DNA of 64,000 nucleotides from Candidatus Omnitrophota bacterium (GTDB lineage Bacteria > Omnitrophota > Gorgyraeia > Zapsychrales > Zapsychraceae). This document shows positions 372-61,304 of the stretch, in pieces. How positions within the stretch are numbered: the stretch's first letter is position 1; each line of letters starts with the position of its first letter. The position numbers and the translations under genes were made by a program. The DNA is taken from the NCBI GenBank assembly GCA_029261055.1, contig JAJDCA010000051.1, forward strand, positions 9,082 to 73,081. The letters are read 5' to 3'. Below the pieces are notes generated by a model, which was given only the letters and a program-made list of their open reading frames with translations, searched no databases and was not told the origin of the DNA.

Positions 372-373
372 TT

Positions 374-3041: not shown

Positions 3042-3045
3042 ACTG

Positions 3046-19264: not shown

Positions 19265-22200
19265 TTAAATACGACTTAATTCTTTGGCTACATCTTCTTC
19301 TGAAACGCCAAGTAGCAAAGGTAGATTATGTACCGGTGTCATCTGAATAATCACCGGTGTCAGGCCGTTAATATTGAAGTTGAGGTTCTCTAATTCACTC
19401 TCACTGCAGTCTGGATTTTCATCAGAAAAACAAGGGACGAGGATATTAGGAAAATCAAAATCAATCTTATCGCCATTTGTTTGAAGATCAAAATTGCCAG
19501 GATTAAAATCAATCCCACCAAGATTGTTATCCTGACCTAACAAACTTTTATCGTGTAACACTTCCTCGACCATCTGCTTTATCTCTTCCATTAACAGACC
19601 TTTTACTTCCTCATCATTAATACCTCCCTGCATTACTTTAAGCTCATATTTTTCTATTAAGTTTTCAGAGAACACCTTTAATAAAAATTTATTTACAATA
19701 TCCACCAGAATTTCTTTATTTGAAAACTTTTTTAGATTAAATACAACAATAGACTTTTTAATCAAAATTTGAAAAATTCCAAATATTCTTTTAAAATTCT
19801 CGACACTAGCTTCATTTTCACCCATATCATCTAAAACACGTTTCATAAAACGAGATCTTTCTTTTTCAAATAAAGACGTAGAAAAAAAATTTTTATCTCC
19901 AATTTTTTGATTTACAATATTTTCCAAGAAATCATAACGTTTACCCATTCTATCTTTCAATAAAGTAAGATCACCTGTCTCATACAAAGCCATCATGAAA
20001 TCTTCACCATATTTATTAATAATCTTTTTTACAACTCGCAACTCATTTCCGTAATGTAATAACGGAGAAATTATTTTGTTTTCTATCTCCTCCTCAGATA
20101 ATTCTCTATCGTACTTCGGACTCAAGAATTCAAATGCTTCCGGATTTTTTCTAAATACCTCCTTCAGTGTTTTTTCCTGTAAATACGTAGCGAATCCTTC
20201 TCCTAAATAATTCCCCAACAAACCTGTTAAACTCAAATAATCCTTACTATGCCATTGTTCATGTATTACTGCAGCAAGAAAATCTAACGGAGTCTCTATT
20301 GATGAAATCAAACTTATTCCTTGTCTTTCTTTCCCTCCTATTATCTCAATAAATTCCCCGATAGAATCGGAATCATGAAATTCAAAAATATCATCCAGCA
20401 ATGACCCCGGCTTAATCATGAATACTAAATTTTCATCAAAATCAGGCATATTTTCTTTTACTATTTTAAATATTTTCTTTTGCTGAGAAGATAATTTTAT
20501 CTTGTTGTATTTTCTAAGAACTTTTACTCGAGATTGAAAACTATTTGCAAAGCTAAATTCTTTCCTTAAAAGCATTGCCTTTTTCACTTTTTTAAAATTT
20601 CCATGTATAATCCTTACTTTCTCCTTTTGATTATTAATTTCATCTCTTGATGTATCTAGTTCTATTAAAATATTCAAAACATTCTTTTCCTTTTGTAATT
20701 TTTCCGGACTCCATTCTTTTATATATCGATCCATATTTCTTATTATTTCTTCTCCAGAAAAATCTTCAAAATCACTATCATTACCTACGCCGATCATCAT
20801 AGCTCTATCCAAACCACTCTCGACAGAATACCCCTTATGCCCTCGCTTTTTGGATTTAAAAGAAACACCCTGAACATCATTCCGAAACCTTTTCGCTAAT
20901 AAAATAGCGGCGAGAAGTTTCATAAAATTACCAAATTCCCCTCTGGACTGATGCCCGATGGTGGAATCATTTGAAAAATTTAGTATCAAGTTTTCCCTGT
21001 TTGAACTTCTTTTGAGTACTTGCATAAAATGAGCTAATTCATGCACCAAAGTATTCGTCAGCGGATGTAAATCACGGCTCTGCGGATTAACAGTCTCAAA
21101 GGATGAAACACTGTCTGTTCTAAAATATATCGTTACCTTTCCTCTCTTCAGCTCAAATCTTCCTGATACAGGAAAATCTTCATTCAATAACTTCACATTC
21201 GTAAATCCAATCAACCCAACGGTATTTTTGACCCATTCAAAGAAGCTAACTTGTTGTTCATTAAAATATTCAGGAGAAATAACATAATCCTCTGCATCAT
21301 ATTTCGCGGCTTCCACAGATTTTTCCGCCTTTTCTTTCCGTTCTTTAAAATAAGGATCGGAAATATAATCTAATTCATTCTCATCAATACCATGCTCTGC
21401 CGCCACCCGAAGTGCTTCCTTTGGATTAACGCTCATTTGTGTCTTAATACGTCTTTTCAACAAACTGTCTCTTTTTCCATTTTCTGTATCAACATCCAAC
21501 TGCACCATAAACAGAATAAAAGATTCCTGCCATTGCTCTTTCTGCTGTCTAACCCCAATTTTCCCATCAAAGGCCTTCCCAATTTTTTTCAAATCAGATA
21601 ACGCTATCACATCAATCTGCCCTTTATTAATGTTCTTAACCACATCAAACAAATGCGTATTTCTTTCTTGATTGATCTTTAAATGAGGACTCTCTTTCTG
21701 TGTTAATCCTTTCCAATACGATGGATTCCTTCCTGTTTCCCACTCCGAATCAAAACGCTTCAGCCGGAATATTTCATCCGTGAGCGCCTTATGCGCCAAT
21801 GCCTTATAAAATTCCACCGCCACATACTTTTGAATCTTCGAAAGATAATCCTTTTCATGCCGAAACGTATCCCGCGTTTCCATAAGCGGCAGAGGAATTT
21901 GAATGATCAACCCTAATTCATCAAAATAACCCCTTAAGAATTCCGGAATAAATTCCAGAAACTCCTCTTTAACCTTGATATCAGAAACCCTTATTCCATC
22001 GCGATCAATAATCTGACTTTTCACATCCGGATCATTAGTCATGTAAATACGAAATTTTCCAAAATTAGTTGTTGCGCCAGTATCCAAAGATTTTGTGATA
22101 AAATCTGTTTCCGCCAAAACCTTTTTCCCCCTCACCTCAAGCGGAACCAACGTTCTTTTTCCATCCTTGTACCGGACAAACGAAATGGTAAATCCCTCTC

Positions 22201-25200
22201 TCTGCGCCATCCCGGCAAACAGCTTCCACGATGATTCAGACAACATTTGATCCAAAGCAGCAATACCATTGCCTTTCTTTTTAATCCGCCGTATCATGAC
22301 CCCATTTTTTAAACCTTGCCGCGCTAACTTACGGACACGTACCAACCTGATCTGCTGCCCGGATGGGTCGACATCAATCGTAAACATATACGCTTCCCCG
22401 TCATTTTTGGCAATAATCTCCAACCGATCTATCCCGGCATACAAAGCAAATTTCCCTTTGCCAAAATAACCGGAGACATCTCCCATCTGCCCCCCTTTTT
22501 CCTTATTCGACTTGGGGATGAGCATGGCTAATATCTTACCGATGGGAGGCCCTTTGCCGTCATCGGTTATTTCTTCAACAAAATCTCCTGTCTCTTCATC
22601 TTCATAATGTTCAACAACAAGATTTACGGCCTTGGCATCGGAGGAATTTTGCGCGGCTTCCGCCGCATGCCGCCCTGCTTCCTGTGCCTTCATAAGATCA
22701 GCAATACTTTGACTAGATTTTTCATTGTCCGGCTGAGCCATAATTTGTTCAATCGCGGCCATCATTTCTTCAATCGTATAAAGATCACTCTCCTCTTCCG
22801 CACTCCTCTTTTTATCTTGGTTCCAGGCTGCAATCTTTTCTACAGGCACACCGCCTTTTGTCATCACAATATCTTCTTCAGCCACGGGGTCTATTTTTCT
22901 CCTAGTATGAACCAAAGGCACATCACTTGTAAAAAACACAATAAACTTTTTGGCCTCTCCTAAATTTAAATCCTGATCCGCGCCTGGATACTTAAATTCC
23001 CTTAAAATATCTATATACTCCACCGATTCAAACGAAGAGGCCCATTGGTCCAAATAATTTTGCCGTACATCTTTGTTTTCATGATTCAAAATTTGTTTCA
23101 GCTGCCGGGTCATGACATCCAGCCCATTTTTGTCTTGAGAAATTCTTGATAAAAATCGAACCATTTTCCGAATAGTGACCACGTCCGTGCTATCTTTCAT
23201 CTCTTTTACCAGTTTATAAATTAAAGGCATAGCCTCAAGATGTTCATCTATTTCAATATTCCACCCAAACAAAAGCGCCTCCATAAATTTAATATCAATA
23301 TTGTTCGCTTGAATATCAACATCCTGATTCGACGCTAAAGAAAACAATTTTTCATAAAATGCTACCCATATCTCATTTAGATCCAGAAGCGAAGACACAC
23401 CATTGACCAGCTTCATAATCTTTTCTTGATCCTTCTTAAGTGCCTTAATAATAAATTCCATCCTTTCAGCAAAAGTATCCAAAGGAAGCCGCTGAAAAAG
23501 ACGATTCCAGTCAGGCGAACCTTCTTGAAAGAGCAAATCAAAGGCCTTGTCATATTTTTCTGTTACAGCTTCGTCCTGCTTCCTGAATAAAGCTCTTATT
23601 TCGCCATTCAAATCATTTCTAAGATCTTCCGGCACAAGATCCAAAAATGGTTTATACGCCTCTTCGGCCTGCTGCACCCACTGCTCCTGTCGACTCAACA
23701 CTTCTTTTTCCCATAAATCCTTAGCTTGATTCATAATGTCCTGTTGTTCCGAAGTGCCCTTACTCAACGGACTTTCCATAAATGCTTTAGGATCAAATAT
23801 CTTTACTTGACCCTCCTCACTGTTGTAAAACACAAAAACAGAACCGGATACGCCGACCAATTCATAATTCAAATAACCCTCCATAACAATTTCAACATGA
23901 TTCCCTTGATCATTAACAATCCTGTAATTACCTTGTGCGTATTGCTCCAAAATAAACGTGCGGTCTTCTGTTATAAAAATAACCCCCTCTCTTCCAGCCA
24001 TTATTGCATCCCCTGTTTTATAAAAGTAATCAACAATTTCTCCTCCTGGTAAAACAGCATACACTACTTTATTATCCCTGGATGATTCCAGACGCATACC
24101 TGTTTTGTGGGTTAATGGAACGTCAAAATTTGAAGCAGATATTATTTCTAAATTTTTATCATAAACCAAAAGCTGATCTTCCAAACGGATAAGCTGAGTA
24201 TCCGACTGGTTTGGCAAATTTTCATAGGATTGAAATTGATCCGGATCAACCGCCTCCATCCCATTCTCCGTGATCCTGGAAATGCCGACAGAATCTTTGC
24301 CATACGTTGTCCAGTATTTGGGTAAATTATATTTCTTTATAATTTCATTTAATTCATGTAGGTTATCAAAGCTTTCAAGCCAACCATTTGAATTATCATG
24401 CTTCTCACCTTTTAGAACAACTCCGAAATAACCATGATTTTCTCCTTTAAATGTTAAAGAAAAAGTTTCCTTTTCATTTGAAGTCATATGAATTTGTTTT
24501 GAATTCGCTACGGAACCATACGGGCTTTGAAAAACAAGCCCTTCGGACTTACTAAGATAAATAAAAATTTCCCCATCCTGATCACTAAAAAAATAGTCTA
24601 TGTTATCAATGCGTCTTTTCTTTTCCAACCTGTACAAATGTTTCCCGGATACATCCTCATACACCACCACATCCGCCTTTGGGTCGATGTAAAAAGACCT
24701 TACATCAGCTGCAATCTGAATTTTAAGGATTTGAATATCTTGATACAAAGGGTCTAAAACAAAAAGATCATTCCTTGAATTCAAAATAATAACGTACCGT
24801 CCTGAGGGGGACAGATTAGCCATCTTTAAATCGTTCAGTATAAAATTATCAGAAGTGTTAAAATAATTTTCCTTCAAGGGTAAAATCATGTACGCACCAG
24901 TTGATTTAGACTTCAAAAGAACCTGCCGCTGATTATACTCAATCAAGAAAAAGCCTTCTGCTGAATTATCCCATGTTCGGGATAGTAACTTCCCTTTACT
25001 ATACGTAGATGCGGCCAATAAAAATTTCCGTGTTATATCCGAGCCGGCCTCCTGCACTTTAAAAATTAAAAACATATTTTCATCCACTTGAAGAATCTCC
25101 GCCCCTTTTTTGATATCTGCAATCCCCTTTCCATTTTCATTTATTAATTGTTGCGTATCCCCATTATTCTTAATAAATATATATCCCTTTTCTAGATTTT

Positions 25201-28200
25201 TCTCTGCAAGAAATTTTTCTGAAGAAATTTTTATCTCAGGGGTTTCGGCCTGACTGGGCATGATGGACAAAAATTCCCTAAATTTCACCTCTTCATTTGC
25301 CCCCTCCGCATTTGTCTTTTTAACAGATGTGTGGGATGGTTGAAATTTAACCGTCTTCTTTTGATTCACAATCTCATACGAGGTATCGATTGTTTCATCG
25401 GCTTTAAGTTTAATCAACTCTGCAAAGAACAAAAAATCAACCTGTTCTTCCTGAGTTAATTCTTCTGTCTGTTGTTTTTCCGCTAAGGCAAAAAACGGTT
25501 CGGCAAACTGCAAAGGAATCGCAATAAAACTATCGGCATCGATGATCGGTAAAGATATCGGATTGTAAAAATCATAAGTGGCTAATGAAAAACTCGTTAA
25601 CGTACCGATCGCTTCTTCGGTAAAGGGCACAGCCACTAAAGGAATATCTTTGTCCTCGCCATTACGCTTACGGGTAAACTTAAAGGTTTGTTTATCCATA
25701 ATACGCGCCCCCATTTTTTTAAGGCTAAACTCCCCGTTCCAGTCAAATAACATAGGGTCTAAATAAACAGCTTTTTGCGCAATTTGGGCATACATCTTTT
25801 GATGCGGCAGAAAAACATACGCCCCCTTTGACTTTATGCCAGCGACCGTTCCGGCGATTTGTTGACGGATGGCCAGTTTAATATCTCGAACAACGGCCTG
25901 ACTCTTCTTATTATCTCCGGCCAGATTATCCAGCCCGGCCGCAATGGTGTTCACATATTTTAACTTTTCTATATCGCTTAACCCCAACTGCTCATTGTTT
26001 AAAATCCCTTCCACCATATGCTCAACGGCCACCTGCATGGGCCACCGGCCGTCATTAGAATAACGTCGTTTTGGAAAATGAATATTGCTCCGGGACGGGG
26101 CAATATCCACAAATCCGTTAAACTCAAGCATCAAAGTCTCCTGGACAAGAGCCTCGGGATTAATATCATCATTATTCATATCTTTCTCAAGGGGGATCGT
26201 TCGCAATACCTCTTCATTTCGCACAAAGGCAACCTTCGCTTTGTTTTCACGGGCATCAGAAATAACCATAACATGTTTAAGAGCCGCTTTAATATCAGAT
26301 TCCTTGACAACTTTAGCTGTTTTATCTCCTTCTCCAGGCACAAACATACGTGATAACTTCACACCATTCATTCCTTTCCCATTATCAATAATTTTAATGG
26401 TGTTCTTTGAGACCAATAATTTAATATCCTTACCTTTTCTGTCCTCTTCCGTAGGGAGAGGTTCCCCTTCAGGAACAAGAATTGTGCGATATTCCCATCC
26501 ATTAACCCGTTTTTCTTCACCCCCTTTTTGTGTGACAATACGCTGCTTCTTGTTATAAGCAAATCTTTCGCGTGCATTATCAATTAATTCACTTTGTGTA
26601 ATTTTGCTTTCTTCATATTCATCCATCTCTTCCGGGATATTACGGCCGGTTTGAATTTCAACAATGGTGCCGTGTTCTAATTCTTGCCCCTCAGCCGCCT
26701 CCCAAAATTGCTCGTGGGTTATTACTTTAATTTGAATGTACACCTGGCCGACGGAGTCTTTGAGCATAGTCAACTGATAAGCCGTATCACCCCCCTCGGC
26801 CAAGGTATACACATCAATACGTCCTTTTATTCCCGTCTCAAGCCAATCCGCGATTTGTTTAATTCCGCGCCCGAATTTTCCAATATCCCCACCCCAAGCA
26901 TCTATACTATTGGCGATAGCTTCCATAATGCCCTGCCCTTTTGGATCCCCGCTCTGAGAATCAACCTCATCCGTAAGGTTTGGTTTGGTATAATGCCCAT
27001 TCAGAATCCAGCCGATACTCTCTTCGGTATATCCATCTTTTACTAATTGCTGCACAATGGCATCATAATAAAATTCTTTTAAGCTCAAGTTAAAATCTTT
27101 TTCTTCTTTTAAAATACCCAAATTACTCAGCAACGATTTTAATTCCAATTCATCCAGCTGATCATCAGCCAGACGCCTTTGAGCCGCGGCAAAATGCTCC
27201 CAATCTATCCCTTTAAAATTTTCTTCCGGTAAGGCATATTCTGTTGCCTGAATTCGATTTTTTATTTTATCCAGTTTTTCCTGATCACCCTGACGGGTAA
27301 TCATGGCGGCATCGGAAAACTTTTCCGGTGGTAAGACTGATACTTTGGCGGATTCATAATCCTTTTGCCCGGTATTTTTAACTTGAGCTTGTATGTTAAC
27401 AAACATAGCCCCATCATCATAAATTCCCTGGATAACATGGAATGGCATCTTCTGTGCCACCAGTAAAATATCTTCCACTTCCTCTCCCATATCCATCCCG
27501 CCAGAAAAATACTTCCGTGGAACAATTGTTTCTGTAACAAAATCATAATCTTCTTTGATGTAGTCATAAACACCTACTTTAAAGGCCTCGAGGTATTGAT
27601 CATAAATTTTCTGTTTGGCCTGTTTGTCTTCAATGTCCACGCCGTCAACTTTGTTCTGGCCGATGTATATTGAGGACAAGGCATGCCTTGTCCCTACAGA
27701 ATTTTTCAATTTTCGTTTGAACCATGTGGCGAGGATCAAGGAATGATAAATCTGGCGGAGCTGGGCGAAATTGGCGCCCTCGTTGACTTCGCGTTCAATT
27801 TCGGGAATGAGGATTTCGCGGATGATGGATGTCGTAGGGGCAACCCTTGTGGTTGCCCTTTCTTTTTTGGCGGGTACAAAGCCCGCCCCTACGTTATGCC
27901 CCATCGCAACATAATCCGCCTCCAACATCACCTTCAACCGCGACTCCACCACAAACGCTGTATTGGTTTCCACATTCTCATACACCACAGCCTCAGACGG
28001 CACAATCCACACCTTGTTAAAGGTATCCACCGGAACATCCATGACGCCATATTCTTCATACGCCCGCTCATGCACCCGATCCCAAAACTCTGCCCCCAAC
28101 TCATCCCCCGGATACATCAATGAGGCAGTAATTTGTTTGAGCAAATAATCTTGGGCCAAAAGATCTCGGCCCATTTCCGTTACTCCAAACTTCTCAGGAA

Positions 28201-28582
28201 TAATACGGTCACTTTCGTACGGACTAAGGTTCACCCACAAATCCTTTTCCGGCACCGTCAGTGAGGCTAAAAAATATTTAATAAGCTTCGAACTCTCCAC
28301 TCTTAAATCTTCACCCTCAGCCTGCCCCTCCCCAGTGTCCACAATAAAATCAAACCGAAACGGTTCCTCCGGAAAAACCTTCAATCCCTTAATCAACACC
28401 GGTGCATACGGCTTACTCAACGATACCATTGCCCCCACTGCAGGAAGATTAACTACTGTTTGCGACTGTGCATTAGCAACTTGTGTCGGATGAATCACAC
28501 TCATCGTAAAAACCGTGATTACCGTAACAGCCACAAAACGAAAAAATAAAGAAAATCGTGTGTTTGTAAAATTAATATTCAT
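19265..28582 (-). CDS. Giant secreted multidomain protein (3105 aa): conserved N-terminal module, two GHKL-like ATPase motif sets, two HExxH zincin-like motifs, putative beta-propeller region
   Basis: Uninterrupted 9.3-kb ORF with a signal peptide (cleavage site ..VANA|QS). N-terminal roughly 370 aa are about 60% identical to the N-terminus of the 51381..54800 protein. Bergerat-fold motifs: EAIANSIDA ... IIDNGKGM, and QNSSDAKA ... ITDDGKGP ... GYFGKGKF. HExxH motifs: LVHELAHFMQ and VIHEQWHS. Confidence 0.8.
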   Translation of the reverse strand: MNINFTNTRFSLFFRFVAVTVITVFTMSVIHPTQVANAQSQTVVNLPAVGAMVSLSKPYAPVLIKGLKVFPEEPFRFDFIVDTGEGQAEGEDLRVESSKLIKYFLASLTVPEKDLWVNLSPYESDRIIPEKFGVTEMGRDLLAQDYLLKQITASLMYPGDELGAEFWDRVHERAYEEYGVMDVPVDTFNKVWIVPSEAVVYENVETNTAFVVESRLKVMLEADYVAMGHNVGAGFVPAKKERATTRVAPTTSIIREILIPEIEREVNEGANFAQLRQIYHSLILATWFKRKLKNSVGTRHALSSIYIGQNKVDGVDIEDKQAKQKIYDQYLEAFKVGVYDYIKEDYDFVTETIVPRKYFSGGMDMGEEVEDILLVAQKMPFHVIQGIYDDGAMFVNIQAQVKNTGQKDYESAKVSVLPPEKFSDAAMITRQGDQEKLDKIKNRIQATEYALPEENFKGIDWEHFAAAQRRLADDQLDELELKSLLSNLGILKEEKDFNLSLKEFYYDAIVQQLVKDGYTEESIGWILNGHYTKPNLTDEVDSQSGDPKGQGIMEAIANSIDAWGGDIGKFGRGIKQIADWLETGIKGRIDVYTLAEGGDTAYQLTMLKDSVGQVYIQIKVITHEQFWEAAEGQELEHGTIVEIQTGRNIPEEMDEYEESKITQSELIDNARERFAYNKKQRIVTQKGGEEKRVNGWEYRTILVPEGEPLPTEEDRKGKDIKLLVSKNTIKIIDNGKGMNGVKLSRMFVPGEGDKTAKVVKESDIKAALKHVMVISDARENKAKVAFVRNEEVLRTIPLEKDMNNDDINPEALVQETLMLEFNGFVDIAPSRSNIHFPKRRYSNDGRWPMQVAVEHMVEGILNNEQLGLSDIEKLKYVNTIAAGLDNLAGDNKKSQAVVRDIKLAIRQQIAGTVAGIKSKGAYVFLPHQKMYAQIAQKAVYLDPMLFDWNGEFSLKKMGARIMDKQTFKFTRKRNGEDKDIPLVAVPFTEEAIGTLTSFSLATYDFYNPISLPIIDADSFIAIPLQFAEPFFALAEKQQTEELTQEEQVDFLFFAELIKLKADETIDTSYEIVNQKKTVKFQPSHTSVKKTNAEGANEEVKFREFLSIMPSQAETPEIKISSEKFLAEKNLEKGYIFIKNNGDTQQLINENGKGIADIKKGAEILQVDENMFLIFKVQEAGSDITRKFLLAASTYSKGKLLSRTWDNSAEGFFLIEYNQRQVLLKSKSTGAYMILPLKENYFNTSDNFILNDLKMANLSPSGRYVIILNSRNDLFVLDPLYQDIQILKIQIAADVRSFYIDPKADVVVYEDVSGKHLYRLEKKRRIDNIDYFFSDQDGEIFIYLSKSEGLVFQSPYGSVANSKQIHMTSNEKETFSLTFKGENHGYFGVVLKGEKHDNSNGWLESFDNLHELNEIIKKYNLPKYWTTYGKDSVGISRITENGMEAVDPDQFQSYENLPNQSDTQLIRLEDQLLVYDKNLEIISASNFDVPLTHKTGMRLESSRDNKVVYAVLPGGEIVDYFYKTGDAIMAGREGVIFITEDRTFILEQYAQGNYRIVNDQGNHVEIVMEGYLNYELVGVSGSVFVFYNSEEGQVKIFDPKAFMESPLSKGTSEQQDIMNQAKDLWEKEVLSRQEQWVQQAEEAYKPFLDLVPEDLRNDLNGEIRALFRKQDEAVTEKYDKAFDLLFQEGSPDWNRLFQRLPLDTFAERMEFIIKALKKDQEKIMKLVNGVSSLLDLNEIWVAFYEKLFSLASNQDVDIQANNIDIKFMEALLFGWNIEIDEHLEAMPLIYKLVKEMKDSTDVVTIRKMVRFLSRISQDKNGLDVMTRQLKQILNHENKDVRQNYLDQWASSFESVEYIDILREFKYPGADQDLNLGEAKKFIVFFTSDVPLVHTRRKIDPVAEEDIVMTKGGVPVEKIAAWNQDKKRSAEEESDLYTIEEMMAAIEQIMAQPDNEKSSQSIADLMKAQEAGRHAAEAAQNSSDAKAVNLVVEHYEDEETGDFVEEITDDGKGPPIGKILAMLIPKSNKEKGGQMGDVSGYFGKGKFALYAGIDRLEIIAKNDGEAYMFTIDVDPSGQQIRLVRVRKLARQGLKNGVMIRRIKKKGNGIAALDQMLSESSWKLFAGMAQREGFTISFVRYKDGKRTLVPLEVRGKKVLAETDFITKSLDTGATTNFGKFRIYMTNDPDVKSQIIDRDGIRVSDIKVKEEFLEFIPEFLRGYFDELGLIIQIPLPLMETRDTFRHEKDYLSKIQKYVAVEFYKALAHKALTDEIFRLKRFDSEWETGRNPSYWKGLTQKESPHLKINQERNTHLFDVVKNINKGQIDVIALSDLKKIGKAFDGKIGVRQQKEQWQESFILFMVQLDVDTENGKRDSLLKRRIKTQMSVNPKEALRVAAEHGIDENELDYISDPYFKERKEKAEKSVEAAKYDAEDYVISPEYFNEQQVSFFEWVKNTVGLIGFTNVKLLNEDFPVSGRFELKRGKVTIYFRTDSVSSFETVNPQSRDLHPLTNTLVHELAHFMQVLKRSSNRENLILNFSNDSTIGHQSRGEFGNFMKLLAAILLAKRFRNDVQGVSFKSKKRGHKGYSVESGLDRAMMIGVGNDSDFEDFSGEEIIRNMDRYIKEWSPEKLQKEKNVLNILIELDTSRDEINNQKEKVRIIHGNFKKVKKAMLLRKEFSFANSFQSRVKVLRKYNKIKLSSQQKKIFKIVKENMPDFDENLVFMIKPGSLLDDIFEFHDSDSIGEFIEIIGGKERQGISLISSIETPLDFLAAVIHEQWHSKDYLSLTGLLGNYLGEGFATYLQEKTLKEVFRKNPEAFEFLSPKYDRELSEEEIENKIISPLLHYGNELRVVKKIINKYGEDFMMALYETGDLTLLKDRMGKRYDFLENIVNQKIGDKNFFSTSLFEKERSRFMKRVLDDMGENEASVENFKRIFGIFQILIKKSIVVFNLKKFSNKEILVDIVNKFLLKVFSENLIEKYELKVMQGGINDEEVKGLLMEEIKQMVEEVLHDKSLLGQDNNLGGIDFNPGNFDLQTNGDKIDFDFPNILVPCFSDENPDCSESELENLNFNINGLTPVIIQMTPVHNLPLLLGVSEEDVAKELSRI

Positions 28583-35281: not shown

Positions 35282-36634
35282 TCAAAATGCTTTAAGAAGT
35301 GCCTGGCGGTCTAAACCTAGGCTGGCGACGGCTTTATTTGGAGTTTTGGAGTAAGCGCGACAAAAAACCCCCAATTCTTTCATGGTGGTCATATCCTTTT
35401 TGTCTAATTCTTGAAGAAGAAGAGCCCTCAATAAATGCTCTTGCATAATTTCTTTGGAAGTAAGTCCGGATTGTTGGGATAAACGGTCACGATATACTGT
35501 ACTGGGGCTTACTTGAACATGCTTATGCATATCGTAATTATATTTGTATACTTCGGAAAGTAGAATTTTGACTTGTTCCATACCGCTGGTTTCACTCACA
35601 CCATCGACAACACGAATTATCTTATCTTGTACATGATAACGTTTGAGAACAATAAATACGTCGATCAAACTCACTAAGGCTTCAGGAATGTTCATCGGTT
35701 CATTCTGAAGACGAATAATAGCTTCACGCGAAGTTAAGGCGTGAATTGTTCCAATACAATGTTTTCCTACATTACAGGCCGTCACCATATCTGTTGCCTC
35801 ATGACCCCGAACCTCTCCGACAATGATTCTCTCCGGCCGCATACGTAAACTATTTTTCACTAAATCGGCCAGTGTAATGTCTTCCGTACTTTCTAGTCGT
35901 GAACAACTATCCTCTAAAAAGGTATTTAATTCTAAGGTATCCTCAATCACCACCATACGATCCGATTCAGGAATAAAACTAAACAAGGCATTTAAAAGTG
36001 TTGTTTTTCCCACACCAGGACCACCGGCAATCATAATATTAGCCGGCCGTATGGACATCCCGTCGACATACATCCATAACTGGGCGGCCACCTCATACGT
36101 TAAACTACCAGCCCGAATAAGGTCGATAATACTTAGGGGTGTCACTTTAGATTTGGTAATCGTAAGCTGCGGACCAAAAGGCGACATGGCAATATTGACT
36201 CTTCCTCCTAAATTAGGTAATTCCAAATTTACAATCTTTTCCAAACGTGTTCTACCGGAAAAAAGTAAAAGCTTTTTTATAAAAATATCCAATTCCTTTT
36301 GACTCGTAAATCTTTTATCTGTTCGGATAAACCCTTTTTGGCAATGATGAATATAAATGGGCTTTAAATTATTAATAATAAGGTCTTCAACTTTTAAATC
36401 GCATAAAAGTTCTGTTACAATGCCGTAAGAAAGAAAACTTCGCAAAAATTCTGCCCTATTTTCCGGCGAGTCAAATTCTTGTTTTAGACTTGGAAATTCA
36501 TTATTATTTAAGACTTCTGAAAGTGTTTTTCCCACCAATTCTTCGCGCTCTTCCTGCGGCTGCAACAAATTCATCTTGCCAGACATCAACTCGACCAATC
36601 GAAATTCTAATTCCATTATTTGTTGCATATCCAT
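35282..36634 (-). CDS. Type II/IV secretion-family ATPase (CpaF/VirB11/FlaI-like)
   Basis: Walker A GGPGVGKTT and the family-specific Walker B/Asp box RPERIIVGEVRG. No pilus or secretion partner genes within 10 kb. Confidence 0.7.
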   Translation of the reverse strand: MDMQQIMELEFRLVELMSGKMNLLQPQEEREELVGKTLSEVLNNNEFPSLKQEFDSPENRAEFLRSFLSYGIVTELLCDLKVEDLIINNLKPIYIHHCQKGFIRTDKRFTSQKELDIFIKKLLLFSGRTRLEKIVNLELPNLGGRVNIAMSPFGPQLTITKSKVTPLSIIDLIRAGSLTYEVAAQLWMYVDGMSIRPANIMIAGGPGVGKTTLLNALFSFIPESDRMVVIEDTLELNTFLEDSCSRLESTEDITLADLVKNSLRMRPERIIVGEVRGHEATDMVTACNVGKHCIGTIHALTSREAIIRLQNEPMNIPEALVSLIDVFIVLKRYHVQDKIIRVVDGVSETSGMEQVKILLSEVYKYNYDMHKHVQVSPSTVYRDRLSQQSGLTSKEIMQEHLLRALLLQELDKKDMTTMKELGVFCRAYSKTPNKAVASLGLDRQALLKAF

Positions 36635-39384: not shown

Positions 39385-39927
39385 TTAATTATTATTTCCT
39401 TCTTGCTTCTTAAACTCTTCCAACAACCTTTTAATATCCTGGTCTGCATTGCGCGCGACCTGAGTGCAAATAAAAATCAAAAGAGAAAACTGCCAACAAT
39501 CTTCAGGCCCCTTGATAAGACCTGTCTGCACATTTTCTTCTTTTTGTAAAATATTTTCGTAATGCTTAATAGCGCCTGAGAGCTTACCTTCATGAATATC
39601 CAAAGACATTGTTTTATTATCATAGCGCAATGATGGCATACGTACACCACGAACAAGGAGAAAATTAATCAAAGAATTTTCATCAATTCTTTCCTCTTCA
39701 CCAAATTCAAAACCTTGAAACTGTGGATGATTGGGCGGAACAATAATGGAAGGTTTCTCGACAACAACCTCTCCTTTACGTACAATCGTATCTCCCACAT
39801 TAATAGTCGATTCTGATAATAAAATATACGGTACGTGCGTATCGCCCAACGTCAAAAGAGCCTGAATACGCGACCGGATAATTTCCGTACTTTTTAAAGC
39901 TTTATACCAAGATTTCTCAAAACTCAT
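39385..39927 (-). CDS. Hypothetical protein (180 aa)
   Basis: ORF with gene-like codon periodicity and spacing; no recognizable motifs. Confidence 0.4.
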   Translation of the reverse strand: MSFEKSWYKALKSTEIIRSRIQALLTLGDTHVPYILLSESTINVGDTIVRKGEVVVEKPSIIVPPNHPQFQGFEFGEEERIDENSLINFLLVRGVRMPSLRYDNKTMSLDIHEGKLSGAIKHYENILQKEENVQTGLIKGPEDCWQFSLLIFICTQVARNADQDIKRLLEEFKKQEGNNN

Positions 39928-40016: not shown

Positions 40017-40109
40017 CTGGCGGAGGAGGAGAGATTCGAACTCTCGAGCCATCTTACGACAGCCACACGCTTTCCAAGCGTGCGCCTTCAACCACTCGGC
40101 CACCCCTCC
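40017..40109 (-). tRNA. tRNA-Ser (anticodon GGA), class II, CCA encoded
   Basis: Reverse complement is GGAGGGGTGGCCGAGTGGTTGAAGGCGCACGCTTGGAAAGCGTGTGG...GAGAGTTCGAATCTCTCCTCCTCCGCCA. Anticodon stem CACGC/GCGTG, loop TTGGAAA. Confidence 0.85.
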
Positions 40110-40228: not shown

Positions 40229-41242
40229 CTACTCCCCATTTTTCTTCCCCGTAATCCGCCTTATTTCTTTATCAAAGTCGGAAATGTAATCTTTATCCTG
40301 TTGAATACGATACGCTTCATATTCCTTATGCGCCAAAGCTAAAGCCACTTCATGACTGATTGAACCCGCATTAGTCAAAATTTCATATTCGCTGAATTTT
40401 AAAAAAGCATTCAACTTTTTAATCCAATCTTTCATATACATTGGAATATTACGAATAGCCTGTAATTCCGCAAAATCTAAATACATCGTAACAATACGGT
40501 TTAGATGATCGAGTTCCGGTTTGTTTAAATAATTCTTGGCCGTGGCAACGTCACTTGGCAGAACTTTACCCTTGGGCTCTTTTCGCCATGCCGTTAACCC
40601 CATATTAGGTTTGGCACTATTGGCCCGTTTGGCAACAATTTCAGCGGCAGTTTTTCCGGTAATGGCAAAATGCAGTTTATTTTGAACGGTCGCAAAAAAC
40701 TTTTTTGTATCTTCAGCCTTAGCAGAATAATCCATCGAAGTGGCATAAATATCTGTAATTTTTTGATACATCATCCTTTCGCTTGAACGAATATCTCTTA
40801 TTTCTTCAAGCAAATCATCGAAAAATCGGGTGCTGAAGCGAGAACCATATTTAAAACGGTTACTATCAATAGCGAAGCCTTTATGTATATATTTCTGGAG
40901 AATTGTAATAGCCCATTGCCTAAATTGTGTACCCCGCTGAGAATTAACTCTATACCCTACAGCAATAATGGCCTCTAAAGAATAGAATTTTGTTTGATAT
41001 TTTTTACCATCTTCGGCAGTATGTGCAAATTTTGCACATACTGTATTTTCTTCTAATTCTTGCTCTAGAAAAATATTTTTAAGATGTTTAGTAATAACCG
41101 TTCTATCCACATCAAATAATTCCGCTATTCGTTTTTGAGGCAACCAAATATTCTCCTTAGCATACAACACCTCAATATTAACACCCCCCTCACCGGTTTG
41201 ATATACAGCAATCTGATCATCTGGTATTTTCTTTCTTTTCAT
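40229..41242 (-). CDS. RhuM-family (virulence/defense-island associated) protein
   Basis: IAVYQTGEGGVNIEVLYAKENIWLPQKRIAELFDVDRTVITKHLKNIF...YRVNSQRGTQFRQWA is collinear with the RhuM family N-terminal consensus. Confidence 0.7.
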   Translation of the reverse strand: MKRKKIPDDQIAVYQTGEGGVNIEVLYAKENIWLPQKRIAELFDVDRTVITKHLKNIFLEQELEENTVCAKFAHTAEDGKKYQTKFYSLEAIIAVGYRVNSQRGTQFRQWAITILQKYIHKGFAIDSNRFKYGSRFSTRFFDDLLEEIRDIRSSERMMYQKITDIYATSMDYSAKAEDTKKFFATVQNKLHFAITGKTAAEIVAKRANSAKPNMGLTAWRKEPKGKVLPSDVATAKNYLNKPELDHLNRIVTMYLDFAELQAIRNIPMYMKDWIKKLNAFLKFSEYEILTNAGSISHEVALALAHKEYEAYRIQQDKDYISDFDKEIRRITGKKNGE

Positions 41243-51380: not shown

Positions 51381-54300
51381 CTAATTCAAACGCGACACAT
51401 TATACTCTTCATTTTCTTCATTACGAGGTACAAGGCCTAAGAGGGGTAAAATACTATTAATCGGCGTAAAATCCATAAACACCGGTGAAAACACAACACC
51501 ATCCTCGAGCAAGGGCTCCAACTGCGCAGGGTCAAATTGAATGTCCACCCCGCTACCCCCTCGATTGAGGTCGATTTCGTTCATGTCGATACCACCGACC
51601 ATTGAATCATCGACATCATCTTTATCTTCTTTGAAAATATGATTACTTAGCCAACTTTCCCTACCCTTCAAAACAGCATCAGCAAATTCCCGAGAAAATT
51701 CTGCAGGTTTTTTTGACTGGGTAATCGCGGCATTTACCAAAACAGCATTAAACCCCATTTCCATAGCTTCTTGCGCATGTTCAGGGGAACTTATGCCTGC
51801 CTCAGCAATTAATTGAATATCAGGTCGAATCCCTCTAGACCAAATCATAATATTTTTTATTAATTTTTTACCCTCTTCTGTTCCCAATCCACCACCTGAG
51901 CCTGGTTGTGTGCCTTCGATACGCAACCCAACGACTTGTTTTAATTCTAGTATTTCGTTTAACATTTTTTTAGACATTGTTTTTCCAATTAAGGGGAAAA
52001 TCTTAATATCCTTATTAAGATTAACCAACACTTTAACAGCATCAATGATGTCATTATTTTTTGTCATTAGATTGTCATCTCTAATTTCAAGTTTAAGGTA
52101 AGGCGTTTGTACTAATTGGACTCCTAGCGCTGCCATTATTATAGCTTCCTCTTGGTTTTGAACTCTACTAGTGTTAACCATCGTGATAAATTCTTTTGTT
52201 TCACCTAACCGCAACAATTCTTTATGCGTTGATTCTATATAAGGAACCCGCACATCTTCTGGCAATGTATTTAAACTCCCTGATTTACCTAACTTAGAAA
52301 ACCCTGCATTACTTTTAAATTTAGTATCTTGTAATATTTTTTTTGCCTCTTTAAAAGATGTTGTTTTTTTTAATTCTCTGACATCTCCTGGAAGAAAAAT
52401 AAATACTTGGGACCCAGATTCTAAAACAATATCGCGCGAAACGTTTGGAGAAAGTGTAGCAATACAAGTAGCATCAGAACAATTGTCATTACGCATATGC
52501 GTTATTGCCGTTGGAGAAATTAAAGGAAATAACTCCACCCCATTAATAACAAACCGAGTATAATTTTGAACTTCGACTACCTCTACATCAATAGTTTCCG
52601 CTGATTCAAGCTCAATTTCTCTCATGAGCCACTCTCTAATTTGGCCTTTATAATACTTAACTCCGTTATAATCACTAAAATTCCTCAAACCTCCCCAAAA
52701 ACCTCCAAACTTTAACCCGATAAATGTTTCACTTACAGATGCTTCTAACTTTACTACTTTAGAGAAAGCCTTAGCTATTTCTGTTGCAACATTTAGATAA
52801 TGCTTAAGAAGCTCTTTTTTCTTTTCCTTACTTACTCCCCCAAAAGGCAACATTTTCAAGGATATTGCCACGCCACCGTATAAATGAGATGTCCTATCTA
52901 ATTCATATACCATGTCTCGCATTATCGTTTCACGCAAAGACATCTCAGGCGCATTTTCCTCTTCCTTCTTTCTGACCATCGCCTTATCAAAATACTTTCC
53001 TAAATCATCCCAATCTATTTCTTCAGTATTGTTTATAATTAAATCTTTTCCTAATTGCGGAATCTCAGAATTTAATTTTTCATATGTTTTTGAAGAAAAT
53101 GTTGATCCTTCAACCATGAGGACCACTTTTCTATTTTGCTCAGCACGTTTACGCAGTCTTTCTTGCCTTGTCTCCTCATTGACATGAAATAATACTTCCA
53201 CGTCTGGTTCAATATTATTATTTAAATAAGCCGATGTCTCTACGCCTACGAAAAAAGCAATCTTTCTATCCCACATTTCTGTCTTCACAATTTTATTAAA
53301 AGGAGCATCCCGATCATTCAAAAATATTTCGTAACCCTCTCCAGCAACCGAGTTATCAGTAAGAGAATAGATAATATCTTTTTTAAAAAATCTTTTTAAC
53401 AATATATCTTCTACAAATGTCTTAATAAAAGTTTTCTTACCTGTACCGCTTAAACCTGCAATTCTAATAAATAACGCTCTTTTTTCATTATGCGAAGCTA
53501 ATTTTTTATCAATTATGTCCAAAAGCTCTTTGCTTCCCTCAAATACATTTTTGGATTTAACATACCCTTTTTTAATCTTTTCTTCAAAAGTCATCGTCGA
53601 AGCATCCACCTCATCTTTCTTCGGTGTTACACTCATCGCAAAGTCAAAGGTAGCGCCTACAATTGAATTTTCAATTTGTGTTGGATTAAAAGCTGGGGTG
53701 AATCGCATGGCAGCATCTTTGAATCCCCCTGAGAAATACTTCCTCGGGATGACTTCCTGGCTTAATGTATCGTACTCTTCCTTAATATAATCAAACACCC
53801 CTGTCTTAAACGCTTGCATGTATCGATCATAAATTTGATTGTTAACCGTCTTGTCTTCAATCGCAACACCAGCGACTTTGTTTTGGTCAACGTAGACTTG
53901 GAAAAGGATACTTCCTTTGATGGTTTCTTTGTACCATTTGGCGAGGATCAGGGAATGGTACATCTGTCGTAGTGATGCGAAATTTTGGCCTTCGTTGACT
54001 TCGCGTTCGATTTCGGGAAGGATGATTTCGCGAATGATTTCGGTGGAATCCCCTCGCAACTGATCTTCACCGAAGGTTGCTCGGGGCTCGGCGTTGGAAT
54101 TATTATTGTTCAACGCCTCGTAATCTTCCTCCAACATCACTTTCAGCCGACTGTTAACGATGTACACCGTATTCTCATGCTCATACACCGTTGCACTCTC
54201 CGGCATGATCCAAACTTTGTTAAAGGTGTTCACTGGGATTTCTGTCACCCCATATTCTTTCTCGGCTCGTTCATAGACCCTCGCCCAAAATTTTTCCCCC

Positions 54301-54800
54301 AACTCTTCCTCCGGATACATCAAACTCGCTGTGAGTTGTTTCAACAAATAATCTTGCGCTAATAAATCACGCCCCAAGGCGGTCTTGCCTAATTCTTCGG
54401 GAATAATTCGGTCTGGCTCATATGGCGATAAATTCACCCACAAATCATCCTTCGGCGTGGTCATGGCGGCTAGAAAATATCGGACAAGCTTTTCTGATTC
54501 TTTTTCAATTTCTTCCTGAGATTTATCCGAATGCCCACTATCAACAATAAAATTAAATCGAAACGGTTCATTTGGATGGATGGTCATGCCTTTAAGAAGT
54601 ACCGGAACAAACGCAGGACTGGGCGGCACCATAGCTCCTGGAACAGGCAGATTCAACAAACTTATACCTGCCTGTCCGGCAGGCAGGCTCTGAGAAAAGC
54701 TTGGTGGCAGAATCGTACAAAACGCAAAATATACAGACAAAATGCAAGAAAATACCGAATAACCAAAGCTTTTACGCTTTTTTTGATAATACGTCCACAT
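51381..54800 (-). CDS. Large signal-anchored multidomain protein (1139 aa): conserved N-terminal module (paralog of the 3105-aa protein N-terminus) + P-loop kinase-like domain + ThiG (thiazole synthase)-like TIM barrel
   Basis: N-terminal KKRK followed by a hydrophobic anchor. About 370 aa collinear with 27480..28500. Walker A AGLSGTGKKT, APS-kinase/uridine-kinase-like. The C-terminal roughly 300 aa align with ThiG through blocks SGSQ, NTS..EEAI, YLKLEI (catalytic Lys), GSGGGLG and GFNAVLVNAAI. Confidence 0.8.
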   Translation of the reverse strand: MWTYYQKKRKSFGYSVFSCILSVYFAFCTILPPSFSQSLPAGQAGISLLNLPVPGAMVPPSPAFVPVLLKGMTIHPNEPFRFNFIVDSGHSDKSQEEIEKESEKLVRYFLAAMTTPKDDLWVNLSPYEPDRIIPEELGKTALGRDLLAQDYLLKQLTASLMYPEEELGEKFWARVYERAEKEYGVTEIPVNTFNKVWIMPESATVYEHENTVYIVNSRLKVMLEEDYEALNNNNSNAEPRATFGEDQLRGDSTEIIREIILPEIEREVNEGQNFASLRQMYHSLILAKWYKETIKGSILFQVYVDQNKVAGVAIEDKTVNNQIYDRYMQAFKTGVFDYIKEEYDTLSQEVIPRKYFSGGFKDAAMRFTPAFNPTQIENSIVGATFDFAMSVTPKKDEVDASTMTFEEKIKKGYVKSKNVFEGSKELLDIIDKKLASHNEKRALFIRIAGLSGTGKKTFIKTFVEDILLKRFFKKDIIYSLTDNSVAGEGYEIFLNDRDAPFNKIVKTEMWDRKIAFFVGVETSAYLNNNIEPDVEVLFHVNEETRQERLRKRAEQNRKVVLMVEGSTFSSKTYEKLNSEIPQLGKDLIINNTEEIDWDDLGKYFDKAMVRKKEEENAPEMSLRETIMRDMVYELDRTSHLYGGVAISLKMLPFGGVSKEKKKELLKHYLNVATEIAKAFSKVVKLEASVSETFIGLKFGGFWGGLRNFSDYNGVKYYKGQIREWLMREIELESAETIDVEVVEVQNYTRFVINGVELFPLISPTAITHMRNDNCSDATCIATLSPNVSRDIVLESGSQVFIFLPGDVRELKKTTSFKEAKKILQDTKFKSNAGFSKLGKSGSLNTLPEDVRVPYIESTHKELLRLGETKEFITMVNTSRVQNQEEAIIMAALGVQLVQTPYLKLEIRDDNLMTKNNDIIDAVKVLVNLNKDIKIFPLIGKTMSKKMLNEILELKQVVGLRIEGTQPGSGGGLGTEEGKKLIKNIMIWSRGIRPDIQLIAEAGISSPEHAQEAMEMGFNAVLVNAAITQSKKPAEFSREFADAVLKGRESWLSNHIFKEDKDDVDDSMVGGIDMNEIDLNRGGSGVDIQFDPAQLEPLLEDGVVFSPVFMDFTPINSILPLLGLVPRNEENEEYNVSRLN

Positions 54801-59798: not shown

Positions 59799-61304
59799 TC
59801 AAAACTCTACCGTTCCACTAAGGGTAAACCCATCATTATCCAGCTCTGTAATATCCTCTTCTTTTTGAATAAAATACTCTGCCTTCAAAAGAAAATGTTC
59901 ATGCGGCCTGGCATTGACGCCAAAACCGTATTGTGAACGACGGAAAGTCCCATCAGAAAGCGTAACGTCTGTAGCTGATGACGCCCTCAACTTAAGGATA
60001 ACCTCTTTAAACAATGGGGCATCTTTTGTTAAAGTGTACAAAACATCGATGGTTCCCCCATTGCGATCCAAAGATTCCAAAGAGGCCCCCCCATCTAAAT
60101 CTTCTTTGCTAAAATACCAATACGCCCTAAGATCAAGTTTTTTATACACATAACTCGTATCTACGCCATAAGCAGTAAGATCTGCATCATACCGACGAGC
60201 ATCCGTCGTGGCAAAACTTGTATCGGTATTCCGACGCAAAGCTCCTTTGGCAAAGCTAAAACCAAAATTCAAATTTTCTATCCAAGGGAAAACACCTAAA
60301 CGTGTTGTAAACATTCTATTGGAATCATGATCAAGGCTATTTGACCGCGATGCACCAACATTGTCACTCATTTCAAAACTCGTTGGGCCATTCCCAACGG
60401 AAAACAAATAATTAATACCAAAGTTCTCTGCGATGTCCCATTCTCCTTCAGCCATCACCCCAACCTCATTGACATGAGCCGGAACCACTTCCGCTGCTAC
60501 TGGGGATAAAAGATTAAAATTATTTAAAGCAGAAAACCATTCTTCATTATGAATACCAAATGGCCACCAATACCGGCCTCCTACAAAGCGTAAACTGGGG
60601 GCCTCATCTTTAACCTCTACGGGTGCCCACATAATTTTACTCTCTGTAATCACAGGGTCACGGGCATTACCAACAAAATGAACCTCAAACGACCCTGATA
60701 AATTTTGTGTCAATTCACTCCCGATAAAAAGAGCTGTGTCATTTTTAAACCCAGATTCATGTTTACCCGAACGGGTACTTGTACCAGAAATAAGAATTTG
60801 GGAAGTTTCTCCCGGAGCACTCCCCTGTTCCTTATCTAAATCGGCATATGTCACAGTTGAATACCCATGCAGAAAAAAGAAACTGGATTGATCGGCATAA
60901 TTACCGCTTGGGGTTTCTCGTTTAAGTTTATCTTTCGTCGTTGCCAGTTGAGCCCCCTTTTCAGGAAGATTAATCTTGGCCTTATGCAAAAAATCCTTAA
61001 GGAAACTTTTTTTTGCCTCAGAGGGCTCCTTTGCCATGACGTCTGTTTTTGATGCGTCTACGAATTCTTTTTTTACCGTCAAGACTTCAAATTTTTGTTG
61101 AAGATCCACAACCGTACTATTAAATTCGGTTTCTCGTGTTTTTGCCTCTTCACGAAGCCCTTGAATCTCCTGCTGTTGTTGCTGCACTAACTGTCGCAAG
61201 GATTGCATCTCAACCTTGAGATCACTTAAATCATCCGCTTTAAGTCCCATTGGGAACAAACACATCCCAATAGCGACAATAAAAAATACTTTCATTTTTC
61301 GCAT
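59799..61304 (-). CDS. Putative outer-membrane beta-barrel protein with N-terminal coiled coil
   Basis: Signal peptide, Q-rich coiled coil, amphipathic beta-strand pattern, and a C-terminal ...GTVEF with terminal Phe (OMP signature). Confidence 0.5.
   Translation of the reverse strand: MRKMKVFFIVAIGMCLFPMGLKADDLSDLKVEMQSLRQLVQQQQQEIQGLREEAKTRETEFNSTVVDLQQKFEVLTVKKEFVDASKTDVMAKEPSEAKKSFLKDFLHKAKINLPEKGAQLATTKDKLKRETPSGNYADQSSFFFLHGYSTVTYADLDKEQGSAPGETSQILISGTSTRSGKHESGFKNDTALFIGSELTQNLSGSFEVHFVGNARDPVITESKIMWAPVEVKDEAPSLRFVGGRYWWPFGIHNEEWFSALNNFNLLSPVAAEVVPAHVNEVGVMAEGEWDIAENFGINYLFSVGNGPTSFEMSDNVGASRSNSLDHDSNRMFTTRLGVFPWIENLNFGFSFAKGALRRNTDTSFATTDARRYDADLTAYGVDTSYVYKKLDLRAYWYFSKEDLDGGASLESLDRNGGTIDVLYTLTKDAPLFKEVILKLRASSATDVTLSDGTFRRSQYGFGVNARPHEHFLLKAEYFIQKEEDITELDNDGFTLSGTVEF

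Follow-up and report, generated by a model that had tools for sequence, protein, structure and literature searches.

We analysed a stretch of 64,000 nucleotides (hereafter, the window) of contig JAJDCA010000051.1 from the Candidatus Omnitrophota bacterium assembly GCA_029261055.1, which encodes two members of a very large paralogous family of proteins with Sec-type signal peptides that, among named database hits, is restricted to the phylum Omnitrophota. In these proteins, of 3,105 (member 1) and 1,139 (member 2) amino acids, a conserved module of about 320 residues behind the signal peptide (hereafter, N-module) and a conserved tail of about 60-70 residues at the extreme C-terminus enclose a cargo that differs from protein to protein and, as judged from domain matches, consists mostly of nucleotide- or cofactor-dependent enzymes of types that are normally cytoplasmic. 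We lean, with a confidence that only slightly exceeds an even chance, towards the view that these are Omnitrophota-specific Sec-exported enzyme carriers, in which a constant two-part frame would handle the routing that follows passage through Sec, and the payload would be exchangeable. The two modules that frame the variable payload are undescribed, and literature searches found no published description of the family, of its motifs or of cysteine exclusion in Omnitrophota.

The two-part frame and its linkers

The two window proteins align by BLASTP over residues 5-362 of member 1 and 5-359 of member 2 (53% identity, E 3e-117), and identity rises to 57.9% across the 321 residues of the N-module core (residues 42-362 and 47-359; E ~1e-121 to 1e-125). 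A first-pass annotation, made by a model from the sequence without database searches, had pointed to such a collinear module at 27480..28500 and 53700..54700. Every sequence block that it quoted is recovered in our alignment, and these coordinates, which correspond to residues ~28-367 and 33-367, are right; the further extension to residues ~400 and ~420 that it proposed is not seen, and the module stops sharply at PRKYFSGG, at residue 362 of member 1 and 359 of member 2. The module lies behind a signal peptide of about 40 residues, and a six-frame search found just these two copies in the window (Table 1). The module of member 1 is closer to those of proteins from elsewhere (72-75% identity) than to that of member 2 (58%), so the two window copies are old paralogues. 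Comparison of the two upstream regions revealed no shared element. Both proteins are found in a public protein collection, in which the entry P0121 is identical to member 1.

Table 1 Coordinates of the features of the two window proteins, with residue numbers in the respective protein
Feature	Residues	Window coordinates	Strand	Basis
Member 1 (3105 aa): signal peptide, N-module, ~2650-aa cargo, C-terminal tail		19265..28582	-	ORF list and translation
Member 1, Sec-type signal peptide (...VANA before, QSQ after the predicted cut)	1-38	28469..28582	-	Predicted cleavage
Member 1, N-module (LNLPxPGxMV ... WVNLSPYE ... GRDLLAQDYLLKQ ... PRKYFSGG)	42-362	27497..28459	-	
Member 1, linker after the N-module (DGAM and DAAM)	390-393 and 424-427	27302..27415	-	Motif positions
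Member 1, variable cargo	363-3015	19538..27496	-	Pfam and motif scan
Member 1, GHKL-like region (N-box EAIANSIDA at 554, DNGKGM at 733)	~540-760			Motif scan
Member 1, HATPase_c_3 (GHKL ATPase)	1974-2074			Pfam E 8e-6
Member 1, HExxH motifs	2514 and 2774			Motif scan
Member 1, DRAM motif	2592-2595	20798-20809	-	
Member 1, C-terminal tail (GGIDFN ... TPVIIQMTPVHNLPLLLG)	3016-3101	19280..19537	-	Tail HMM E 5e-19 and alignment
Member 2 (1139 aa): signal peptide, N-module, ~700-aa cargo, C-terminal tail		51381..54800	-	ORF list and translation
Member 2, Sec-type signal peptide (KKRK n-region, hydrophobic core 12-30)	1-37	54690..54800	-	Predicted cleavage
Member 2, N-module	47-359	53724..54662	-	57.9% identity to the member 1 module over 321 residues
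Member 2, variable cargo	360-1059	51624..53723	-	Pfam, PDB, motifs
Member 2, D-x-A-M	362-365	53706-53717	-	
Member 2, D-x-A-M	386-389	53634-53645	-	
Member 2, P-loop-like LSGTGKKT	near 450			By eye; not retrieved by P-loop pattern search
Member 2, D-x-A-M	605-608	52977-52988	-	
Member 2, ThiG-like TIM barrel	857-1058	51627-52232	-	Pfam E 2.6e-23; PDB 2htm E 4.5e-12
Member 2, further listed D-x-A-M site		51600-51611	-	
Member 2, C-terminal tail, with DDSM before it (GGIDMN ... SPVFMDFTPINSILPLLG)	1060-1132	51405..51623	-	Tail HMM E 1.5e-7 and alignment

The far C-termini of the two proteins are only weakly similar by BLASTP (E 0.004). A hidden Markov model (HMM) of the tail, made from the C-termini of 80 related genes of other genomes with the window proteins left out, matched both window proteins and no further open reading frame (ORF) of the window. 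The tail consensus, GGIDxN(about 20)F..d(about 10)GF.PVIIxIxP..NLPxLLG, is followed by a short, acidic, Ser-rich stretch (median 15 residues). Of the 59 genome-locus members that run to a stop codon, 51 have the tail, and most of the others contain assembly gaps or early stops; it is also found in 111 of the 144 representative proteins, always at the extreme C-terminus. Thus, the first-pass annotation misplaced the payload, which it had put at the C-terminus: the variable part is the middle, and a conserved tail closes nearly every complete member. Its statement that everything downstream of the N-module is unrelated holds between residue ~363 and the tail; the far C-termini are homologous, and the D-x-A-M linkers considered below are common to both proteins. 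A conserved 'S-x-L-N' end at the extreme C-terminus, suggested by eye, was dropped because no more than 11 of 163 members have it.

In the 196 distinct proteins for which both ends are available, the median pairwise identity is 58.5% for the N-module (45-100%) and 32% for the tail. The divergence of the two modules is correlated (Pearson 0.61, a value reached in none of 300 Mantel permutations), and the 'LQNAPGF' subtype of the tail tracks an N-module subclade with 70% internal identity. A cargo-less member, P0090 (438 amino acids, on five contigs), consists of a signal peptide, the N-module, a linker of ~15 residues and the tail. Given this correlated divergence and the existence of P0090, the cargo seems to be swapped inside a constant frame, and the two ends apparently constitute one co-inherited unit within which the payload is exchanged. 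The AlphaFold2 (AF2) model of P0090 has a predicted local distance difference test score (pLDDT) of 70 and a predicted template modelling score (pTM) of 0.73, with the tail, a mixture of short helices and strands, at pLDDT 55-83; this protein is a useful minimal construct for work on structure and localisation.

A search with the tail profile alone matched solely fragments of 63-133 amino acids. At one of the 80 related loci, a 531-residue protein (L074:15672-17267, plus strand) combines a DAAM motif and a clear family tail with an N-terminus (..NLAFTIIELVIVISVL..) that resembles a prepilin or pseudopilin and without the N-module. This case hints that the tail can be joined to another export signal; the pilin-type assignment of the N-terminus found no Pfam support in this single case and was rejected.

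The isolated N-modules and tails gave no Pfam match even at E<=10, and no Pfam match to the whole window proteins at E<=0.01 covers either of the two modules; NCBIfam, at the same threshold, matched no part of the two proteins. A comparison of the N-module with PDB sequences, as a single sequence or as a 49-sequence profile, returned nothing, and its structural similarity to the BPI/PLUNC (TULIP) lipid-binding fold or to ClyA-type alpha-pore-forming toxins was not significant. The first-pass remark that this is no recognisable trafficking domain is borne out by these searches of Pfam, NCBIfam, PDB and folds, which brought up no generic fold either. The AF2 model of the N-module, made from 49 sequences (pLDDT 75, pTM 0.71), predicts six long helices, a pair of beta-hairpins close to the N-terminus, a long hairpin in the centre and a further one at the C-terminus. 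Many polar residues are invariant (N83, E88, T100, D110, K114, Q115, E230, R241, Q242 and K254, in module numbering), with no invariant His or Cys among the conserved positions, and the most conserved motif, WVNLSPYE...GRD, falls in a segment that is modelled with low confidence and is probably exposed. Taken with the model, the conserved polar residues would fit either a conserved surface for interactions or an active site of an unconventional type.

The third recurrent element is a short motif, D-x-A-M, with the consensus [ST]-D-x-A-M-[LVIM]-[VASGT] and surroundings rich in G, S, E and K. It occurs 424 times in 224 family proteins, compared with 34+/-6 in composition-preserving shuffles (a 12-fold excess), and once in the other window ORFs, where 1.45 occurrences are expected. 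The sites follow the N-module, separate cargo domains or precede the tail; ~28% of them are at residues 350-450, and another group is within 20 residues of the tail. Blocks of homology between the cargos of different members start downstream of the motif and end upstream of it. Of the end points of these blocks, which derive from high-scoring segment pairs that are not independent of each other, 6.5% fall within 10 residues of a D-x-A-M site and 22% within 40 residues, whereas random positions do so at 1.8% and 7.6%, respectively. D-x-A-M thus marks module boundaries, with the block-end comparison as supportive evidence, and it may be a site of processing or docking.

If these sites are indeed cut, the N-module itself could be the enzyme responsible, for instance a non-canonical hydrolase that cleaves the linkers of a self-processing polyprotein after export. 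Such an arrangement would have a precedent in the built-in processing domain of the MARTX toxins; D-x-A-M is short, specific to the family and placed in flexible linkers where modules meet, and the N-module has unusually many invariant polar residues, with its best conserved motif in a segment that the model places, probably, at the surface. However, there is no invariant His or Cys, and Ser85 is only ~90% conserved in one alignment. No peptidase family of Pfam or NCBIfam and no peptidase fold matched, and P0090 retains the module with nothing to process. We consider self-processing by the N-module improbable.

Family size and distribution

A full HMMER search with the N-module against 1.84 billion representative proteins, clustered at 50% identity, retrieved at least 8,012 clusters with an E-value cut-off of 1e-3, of which 6,144 also pass a cut-off of 1e-30. 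With this number of clusters and the diversity of their cargo, the first-pass notion of one fixed N-terminal unit that is combined with widely differing payloads applies far beyond the window. In the best 150 matches, which range from 420 to 4,770 amino acids in length, the module spans from residues ~1-79 to residues 265-405 and is always N-terminal, at about residues 30-390 in the proteins of 600-4,770 amino acids. The named relatives are almost all labelled 'Candidatus Omnitrophica/Omnitrophota bacterium'. A few bear archaeal or RecJ labels, all of them on partial metagenomic entries, which are probably binning or annotation noise.

Among the species-representative genomes of GTDB, a pattern scan found at least 586 stretches, of which 583 were confirmed. 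Whenever the genome record of a listed match names the phylum, it is Omnitrophota; the remaining metagenome-assembled genomes of this list are filed as 'uncultured Planctomycetales' or as unclassified 'bacterium'. There are several copies per genome: among the best 80 genome matches alone, 19 assemblies carry 2-4 each. The 80 related genes mentioned above (L001-L080) were taken with their flanks from species-representative genomes as the best of at least 583 confirmed matches. At least 14 of them (L004, L005, L008, L010, L012, L014, L015, L034, L044 and others) overrun the 10-kb flank, which corresponds to more than 3,600 amino acids, and much longer proteins thus also belong to the family. 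A tie between this family and the published giant proteins of the phylum is possible.

Viral contigs are nearly free of the module, with three copies in the 2.9 million contigs of IMG/VR. These (L081, L082 and L083) have the full N-module, at 53-57% identity, and are probably host fragments or DNA flanking prophages. With only three such copies, a phage origin of the family was rejected.

Signal peptides, cysteine content and cargo

In all 95 representatives whose N-terminus is complete, the module is preceded by a hydrophobic core, with a net positive n-region in 97% of them, and an A-Q or A-x-A motif 5-7 residues ahead of the invariant LP.PG.M motif. By this pattern, the N-terminus appears to be a cleavable Sec signal peptide, and the remaining chain would reside outside the cytoplasm. 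Members 1 and 2 have no transmembrane-like segment beyond the N-terminal one, which in member 1 comprises residues 9-27.

The cysteine content of the family points in the same direction. It is 1.9% in the signal region and drops to 0.046% in the N-module, 0.07% in the cargo (273,544 residues) and 0.31% in the tail, compared with 1.07-1.25% in 792 non-family ORFs that flank the same genes. Of 281 cargos (loci L001-L080 and proteins P0121-P0344; mean cargo length 973 amino acids), 176 are free of cysteine. Mature member 1 has two Cys in 3,067 residues, both within an insertion of the tail, and member 2 has two outside the signal peptide. Exclusion of cysteine from exported proteins is established in bacteria with limited oxidative folding. 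The other signal-peptide proteins of the window, namely, an M16 peptidase, an S8 protease, the 501-residue product of ORF 59799..61304 and an outer-membrane beta-barrel protein, are Cys-poor as well, whereas cytoplasmic enzymes of the window contain 0.5-3.75% Cys. Cysteine exclusion therefore marks the cytoplasmic-type cargo as residing outside the cytoplasm of the producer. The first-pass label 'secreted' is accordingly upheld, since every one of the 95 complete N-termini bears a Sec-type signal peptide and cysteine is excluded ~15-fold over the mature chain.

The cargo itself is heterogeneous. In member 1, the first-pass annotation listed a GHKL ATPase, a zincin and a propeller; the first is confirmed by the HATPase_c_3 match, the second amounts to two HExxH motifs, no tool returned the third, and no PDB sequence matched the cargo. 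In member 2, the ThiG assignment is confirmed by both Pfam and PDB, and the kinase goes back to a P-loop-like motif seen by eye (Table 1). A Pfam census of 32 complete members added ABC1 and Ser/Thr kinases, PP2C, M48, GT2, GGDEF, SNF2/DEAD helicases, PPDK_N, DnaJ, REC, GNAT, several methyltransferases, HATPase_c, metallophosphatase and radical SAM domains, and the precomputed annotations of relatives include HEAT, HAD, Zeta-toxin-like and other domains. The same census contained no adhesin, lectin or Ig-type domain, and no nuclease, deaminase, ADP-ribosyltransferase or other typical toxin domain.

Cargo of this type, together with the long hydrophobic core of both window proteins (~19-21 residues), could be reconciled with cytoplasmic enzymes that are tethered to the inner membrane, the hydrophobic segment being an uncleaved anchor. 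In that case, the remainder of the chain should stay inside, but the positive charge N-terminal of the core in 97% of the members would direct it outside, and the core is followed by A-x-A or A-Q motifs. The cargo also contains 15-fold less Cys than the neighbouring genes, and the other exported proteins of the window are likewise Cys-poor. Membrane tethering on the cytoplasmic side is, accordingly, highly improbable.

Another alternative keeps the export and dispenses with any transfer. The family would then form a surface coat or an enzyme scaffold of the envelope that stays on the producer, in the periplasm or on the outer surface; the N-module would attach it to the membrane, to lipid or to the cell wall, and the tail would provide further anchoring or mediate oligomerisation. 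Most of the cargo, however, needs ATP, GTP, SAM (S-adenosylmethionine) or DNA, which are not expected outside the cytoplasm; the domains typical of adhesion are missing from the census, unlike in the S8 protease of the window, and all fold matches of the N-module are below any significance threshold. We regard a scaffold of this kind as possible, although rather unlikely.

Routing, delivery and genomic context

Enzyme carriers with a constant frame, the reading that we prefer, would work as follows. The preprotein would be exported via Sec and its signal peptide cut at the A-x-A or A-Q site. The N-module and the tail would form the constant frame that is inherited as a whole while payloads are swapped in between, and the D-x-A-M linkers would mark the boundaries of modules and possibly serve as processing or docking sites. 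The frame would handle a step after Sec: an envelope machine could recognise the protein, the cell surface could retain it, or a partner cell could receive it. Such a role is suggested because the frame is obligatory, fixed in position, strongly constrained, co-inherited and absent from ordinary exoproteins. As to the latter, the window encodes an S8 subtilase of 1,630 amino acids (42277-47169, minus strand) with a signal peptide, a fervidolysin-like prodomain, and He_PIG, cadherin-like and PKD domains. This exoprotein has neither the N-module nor the tail, which argues against the frame being a general exoprotein or secretion tag. The N-module may specifically be a delivery or anchor domain, in line with the proposal of the first-pass annotation.

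The payloads would act outside the cytoplasm of the producer, most sensibly within a host or prey cell or on its surface. Omnitrophota are widespread, uncultured and mostly ultra-small bacteria that are thought to be predators, parasites or epibionts. Because most of the payloads need ATP, GTP or SAM, work in or on another cell seems plausible, and it fits the host-dependent lifestyle proposed for the phylum (PMC10066038; bioRxiv 10.1101/2023.11.21.568195). A bolder version, which we consider unlikely, holds that the N-module and the tail serve for recognition and translocation in a novel delivery route of Omnitrophota, that the chain is cut at D-x-A-M into individual effectors, and that the 8,000+ clusters represent the effector repertoire of the phylum. 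If this were true, ultra-small host-dependent bacteria would export long chains of enzymes that depend on ATP, GTP or SAM via Sec and would then pass them into the cells of hosts or prey.

Several observations weigh against a role of the frame in routing and, in particular, in delivery. The invariant polar residues of the N-module could just as well belong to an enzyme or to a domain that binds a ligand. Cysteine exclusion, being seen also in ordinary exported proteins of the window, shows export only and not onward delivery. Action in another cell is deduced solely from the type of cargo and from published inferences on lifestyle. Finally, no partner machine was found: none of the 80 loci has a conserved secretion neighbour, and the neighbours in the window are housekeeping genes.

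The gene of member 1 lies between a gene for a TrxB-like reductase and groES/groEL, the latter located downstream, and that of member 2 is flanked on one side by a gene for an EAL response regulator, together with a PAS kinase, and on the other by a HigB/HigA-like pair. We clustered 811 flanking ORFs of the 80 loci. The recurrent classes are generic PAS sensor kinases (17 loci) and same-strand paralogues of the family (14 loci, in 9 of them within two genes), for example, in the tandem arrangements at L051:1341-7895 and L048:16139-18694. No conserved small gene resembling an immunity gene and no conserved secretion gene was found near the family members in this set, so the neighbouring immunity or secretion gene that the first-pass annotation suggested looking for did not turn up. 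The overlapping pair directly downstream of the member 2 gene encodes a Gp49/HigB-like toxin (50910-51248) and a HI1420/HigA-like antitoxin (50591-50962), on the minus strand, and is an ordinary addiction module rather than a family-specific immunity gene.

The comparison with polymorphic toxins, which the first-pass annotation drew, is accurate for the principle of a constant carrier with variable payloads and inaccurate for the logic of toxin and immunity. As in those systems, one N-terminal unit is attached to many unrelated payloads, and there are multiple copies per genome, some in tandem arrays. However, the payload of the family is internal rather than C-terminal, the C-terminus being occupied by the conserved tail; there is no adjacent immunity gene, as shown by the 80 loci and by the genes downstream of the window members (groES/groEL and the HigB/HigA-like pair); the N-module contains no RHS/YD, TPS, LXG, WXG, PAAR or MafB-N-type domain, or other known trafficking domain, by Pfam and NCBIfam; and signalling and metabolic enzymes take the place of typical toxins in the payload. 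A classical polymorphic toxin system, in which bacteria would compete by means of a trafficking domain, a variable toxin and a cognate immunity gene, is largely refuted and to our mind the least credible of the alternatives.

Another analogy is offered by the MARTX (multifunctional autoprocessing RTX) toxins of Vibrio and its relatives, which possess glycine-rich RTX repeats and a cysteine protease (C80) domain and leave the cell by type I secretion without a Sec signal. There, too, conserved N- and C-terminal regions frame variable, shuffled enzymatic domains that are joined by linkers in one very large polypeptide. In contrast to MARTX, the present family has a Sec-type signal, Pfam detects no RTX repeats or C80 domain in the window proteins and the 32 members of the census, and the frame modules are unrelated in sequence. 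The cargo proteins of the type IX secretion system (T9SS) resemble the family in combining an N-terminal Sec signal with a short C-terminal domain common to otherwise unrelated exported proteins. Unlike in these, the tails match no T9SS C-terminal domain model of Pfam or NCBIfam, an N-module of 320 residues is obligatory, and the phylum is different; no T9SS machinery was seen within the 64-kb window. Thus, the family lacks those defining features of MARTX, polymorphic toxins and T9SS cargo for which we searched, and belongs to none of the three. Autotransporters (type V secretion) have a C-terminal beta-barrel of ~250-300 residues, whereas the tail of ~60-70 residues has no autotransporter match in Pfam. 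The sortase, exosortase and rhombosortase signals consist of a motif, a transmembrane helix and a basic cluster, whereas the two window proteins have no transmembrane-like segment other than the N-terminal one, and the end that follows the tail is acidic and Ser-rich.

Within the phylum, the obvious point of comparison is the giant proteins of more than 10,000-100,000 amino acids, with many transmembrane helices and with genes of type II secretion systems (T2SS) or pili as neighbours (bioRxiv 10.1101/2023.11.21.568195; 10.64898/2026.06.07.730766). These 'Archaeovorins' and others share with the family the phylum, the signal peptides and the presence of cytoplasmic-type domains on exported or membrane proteins, including HATPase_c, HEAT, HAD, GGDEF, PPDK_N, radical SAM, methyltransferase and GNAT. 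The family differs from them in its size (438 to >4,700 amino acids), in the lack of internal transmembrane segments in the window proteins and in the lack of conserved secretion neighbours, and the publications on the giant proteins (bioRxiv 10.1101/2023.11.21.568195; 10.64898/2026.06.07.730766) do not describe the N-module, the tail, D-x-A-M or cysteine exclusion. The family may nevertheless explain the odd domain content reported for the giant proteins.

The HMMs of the N-module and the tail single out thousands of exported proteins that carry, as payloads, enzymes for which a use outside a cytoplasm is hard to see. This frame could serve to list candidate effectors in each genome and to seek an envelope machine that co-occurs with them, and it allows direct tests of export, of processing at D-x-A-M and of localisation in the host in the Velamenicoccus-Methanosaeta enrichment. 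Two undescribed conserved modules, one of them without a detectable fold relative, and a family-specific linker motif are thus added to the protein-sorting signals of bacteria.

Several other features of the window are of note. A gene for an ATPase of the T2SS/type IV pilus type (T2SSE; 35282..36634, minus strand) has no adjacent secretion genes. A stand-alone PilZ gene (4866-5246, minus strand) is located 14 kb from the nearest family gene; PilZ genes downstream of the giant genes have been reported by West-Roberts et al. Four ORFs with a signal-peptide-like or transmembrane-like N-terminus (59799-61304, 59183-59761, 39385-39927 and 41327-41977, minus strand) have no Pfam match. The Rfam matches in the window are three tRNAs only. 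One tRNA gene (40021-40109) adjoins a gene for a RhuM-family 'virulence' protein (40229-41242, minus strand), and this region may be the edge of an integrated element.

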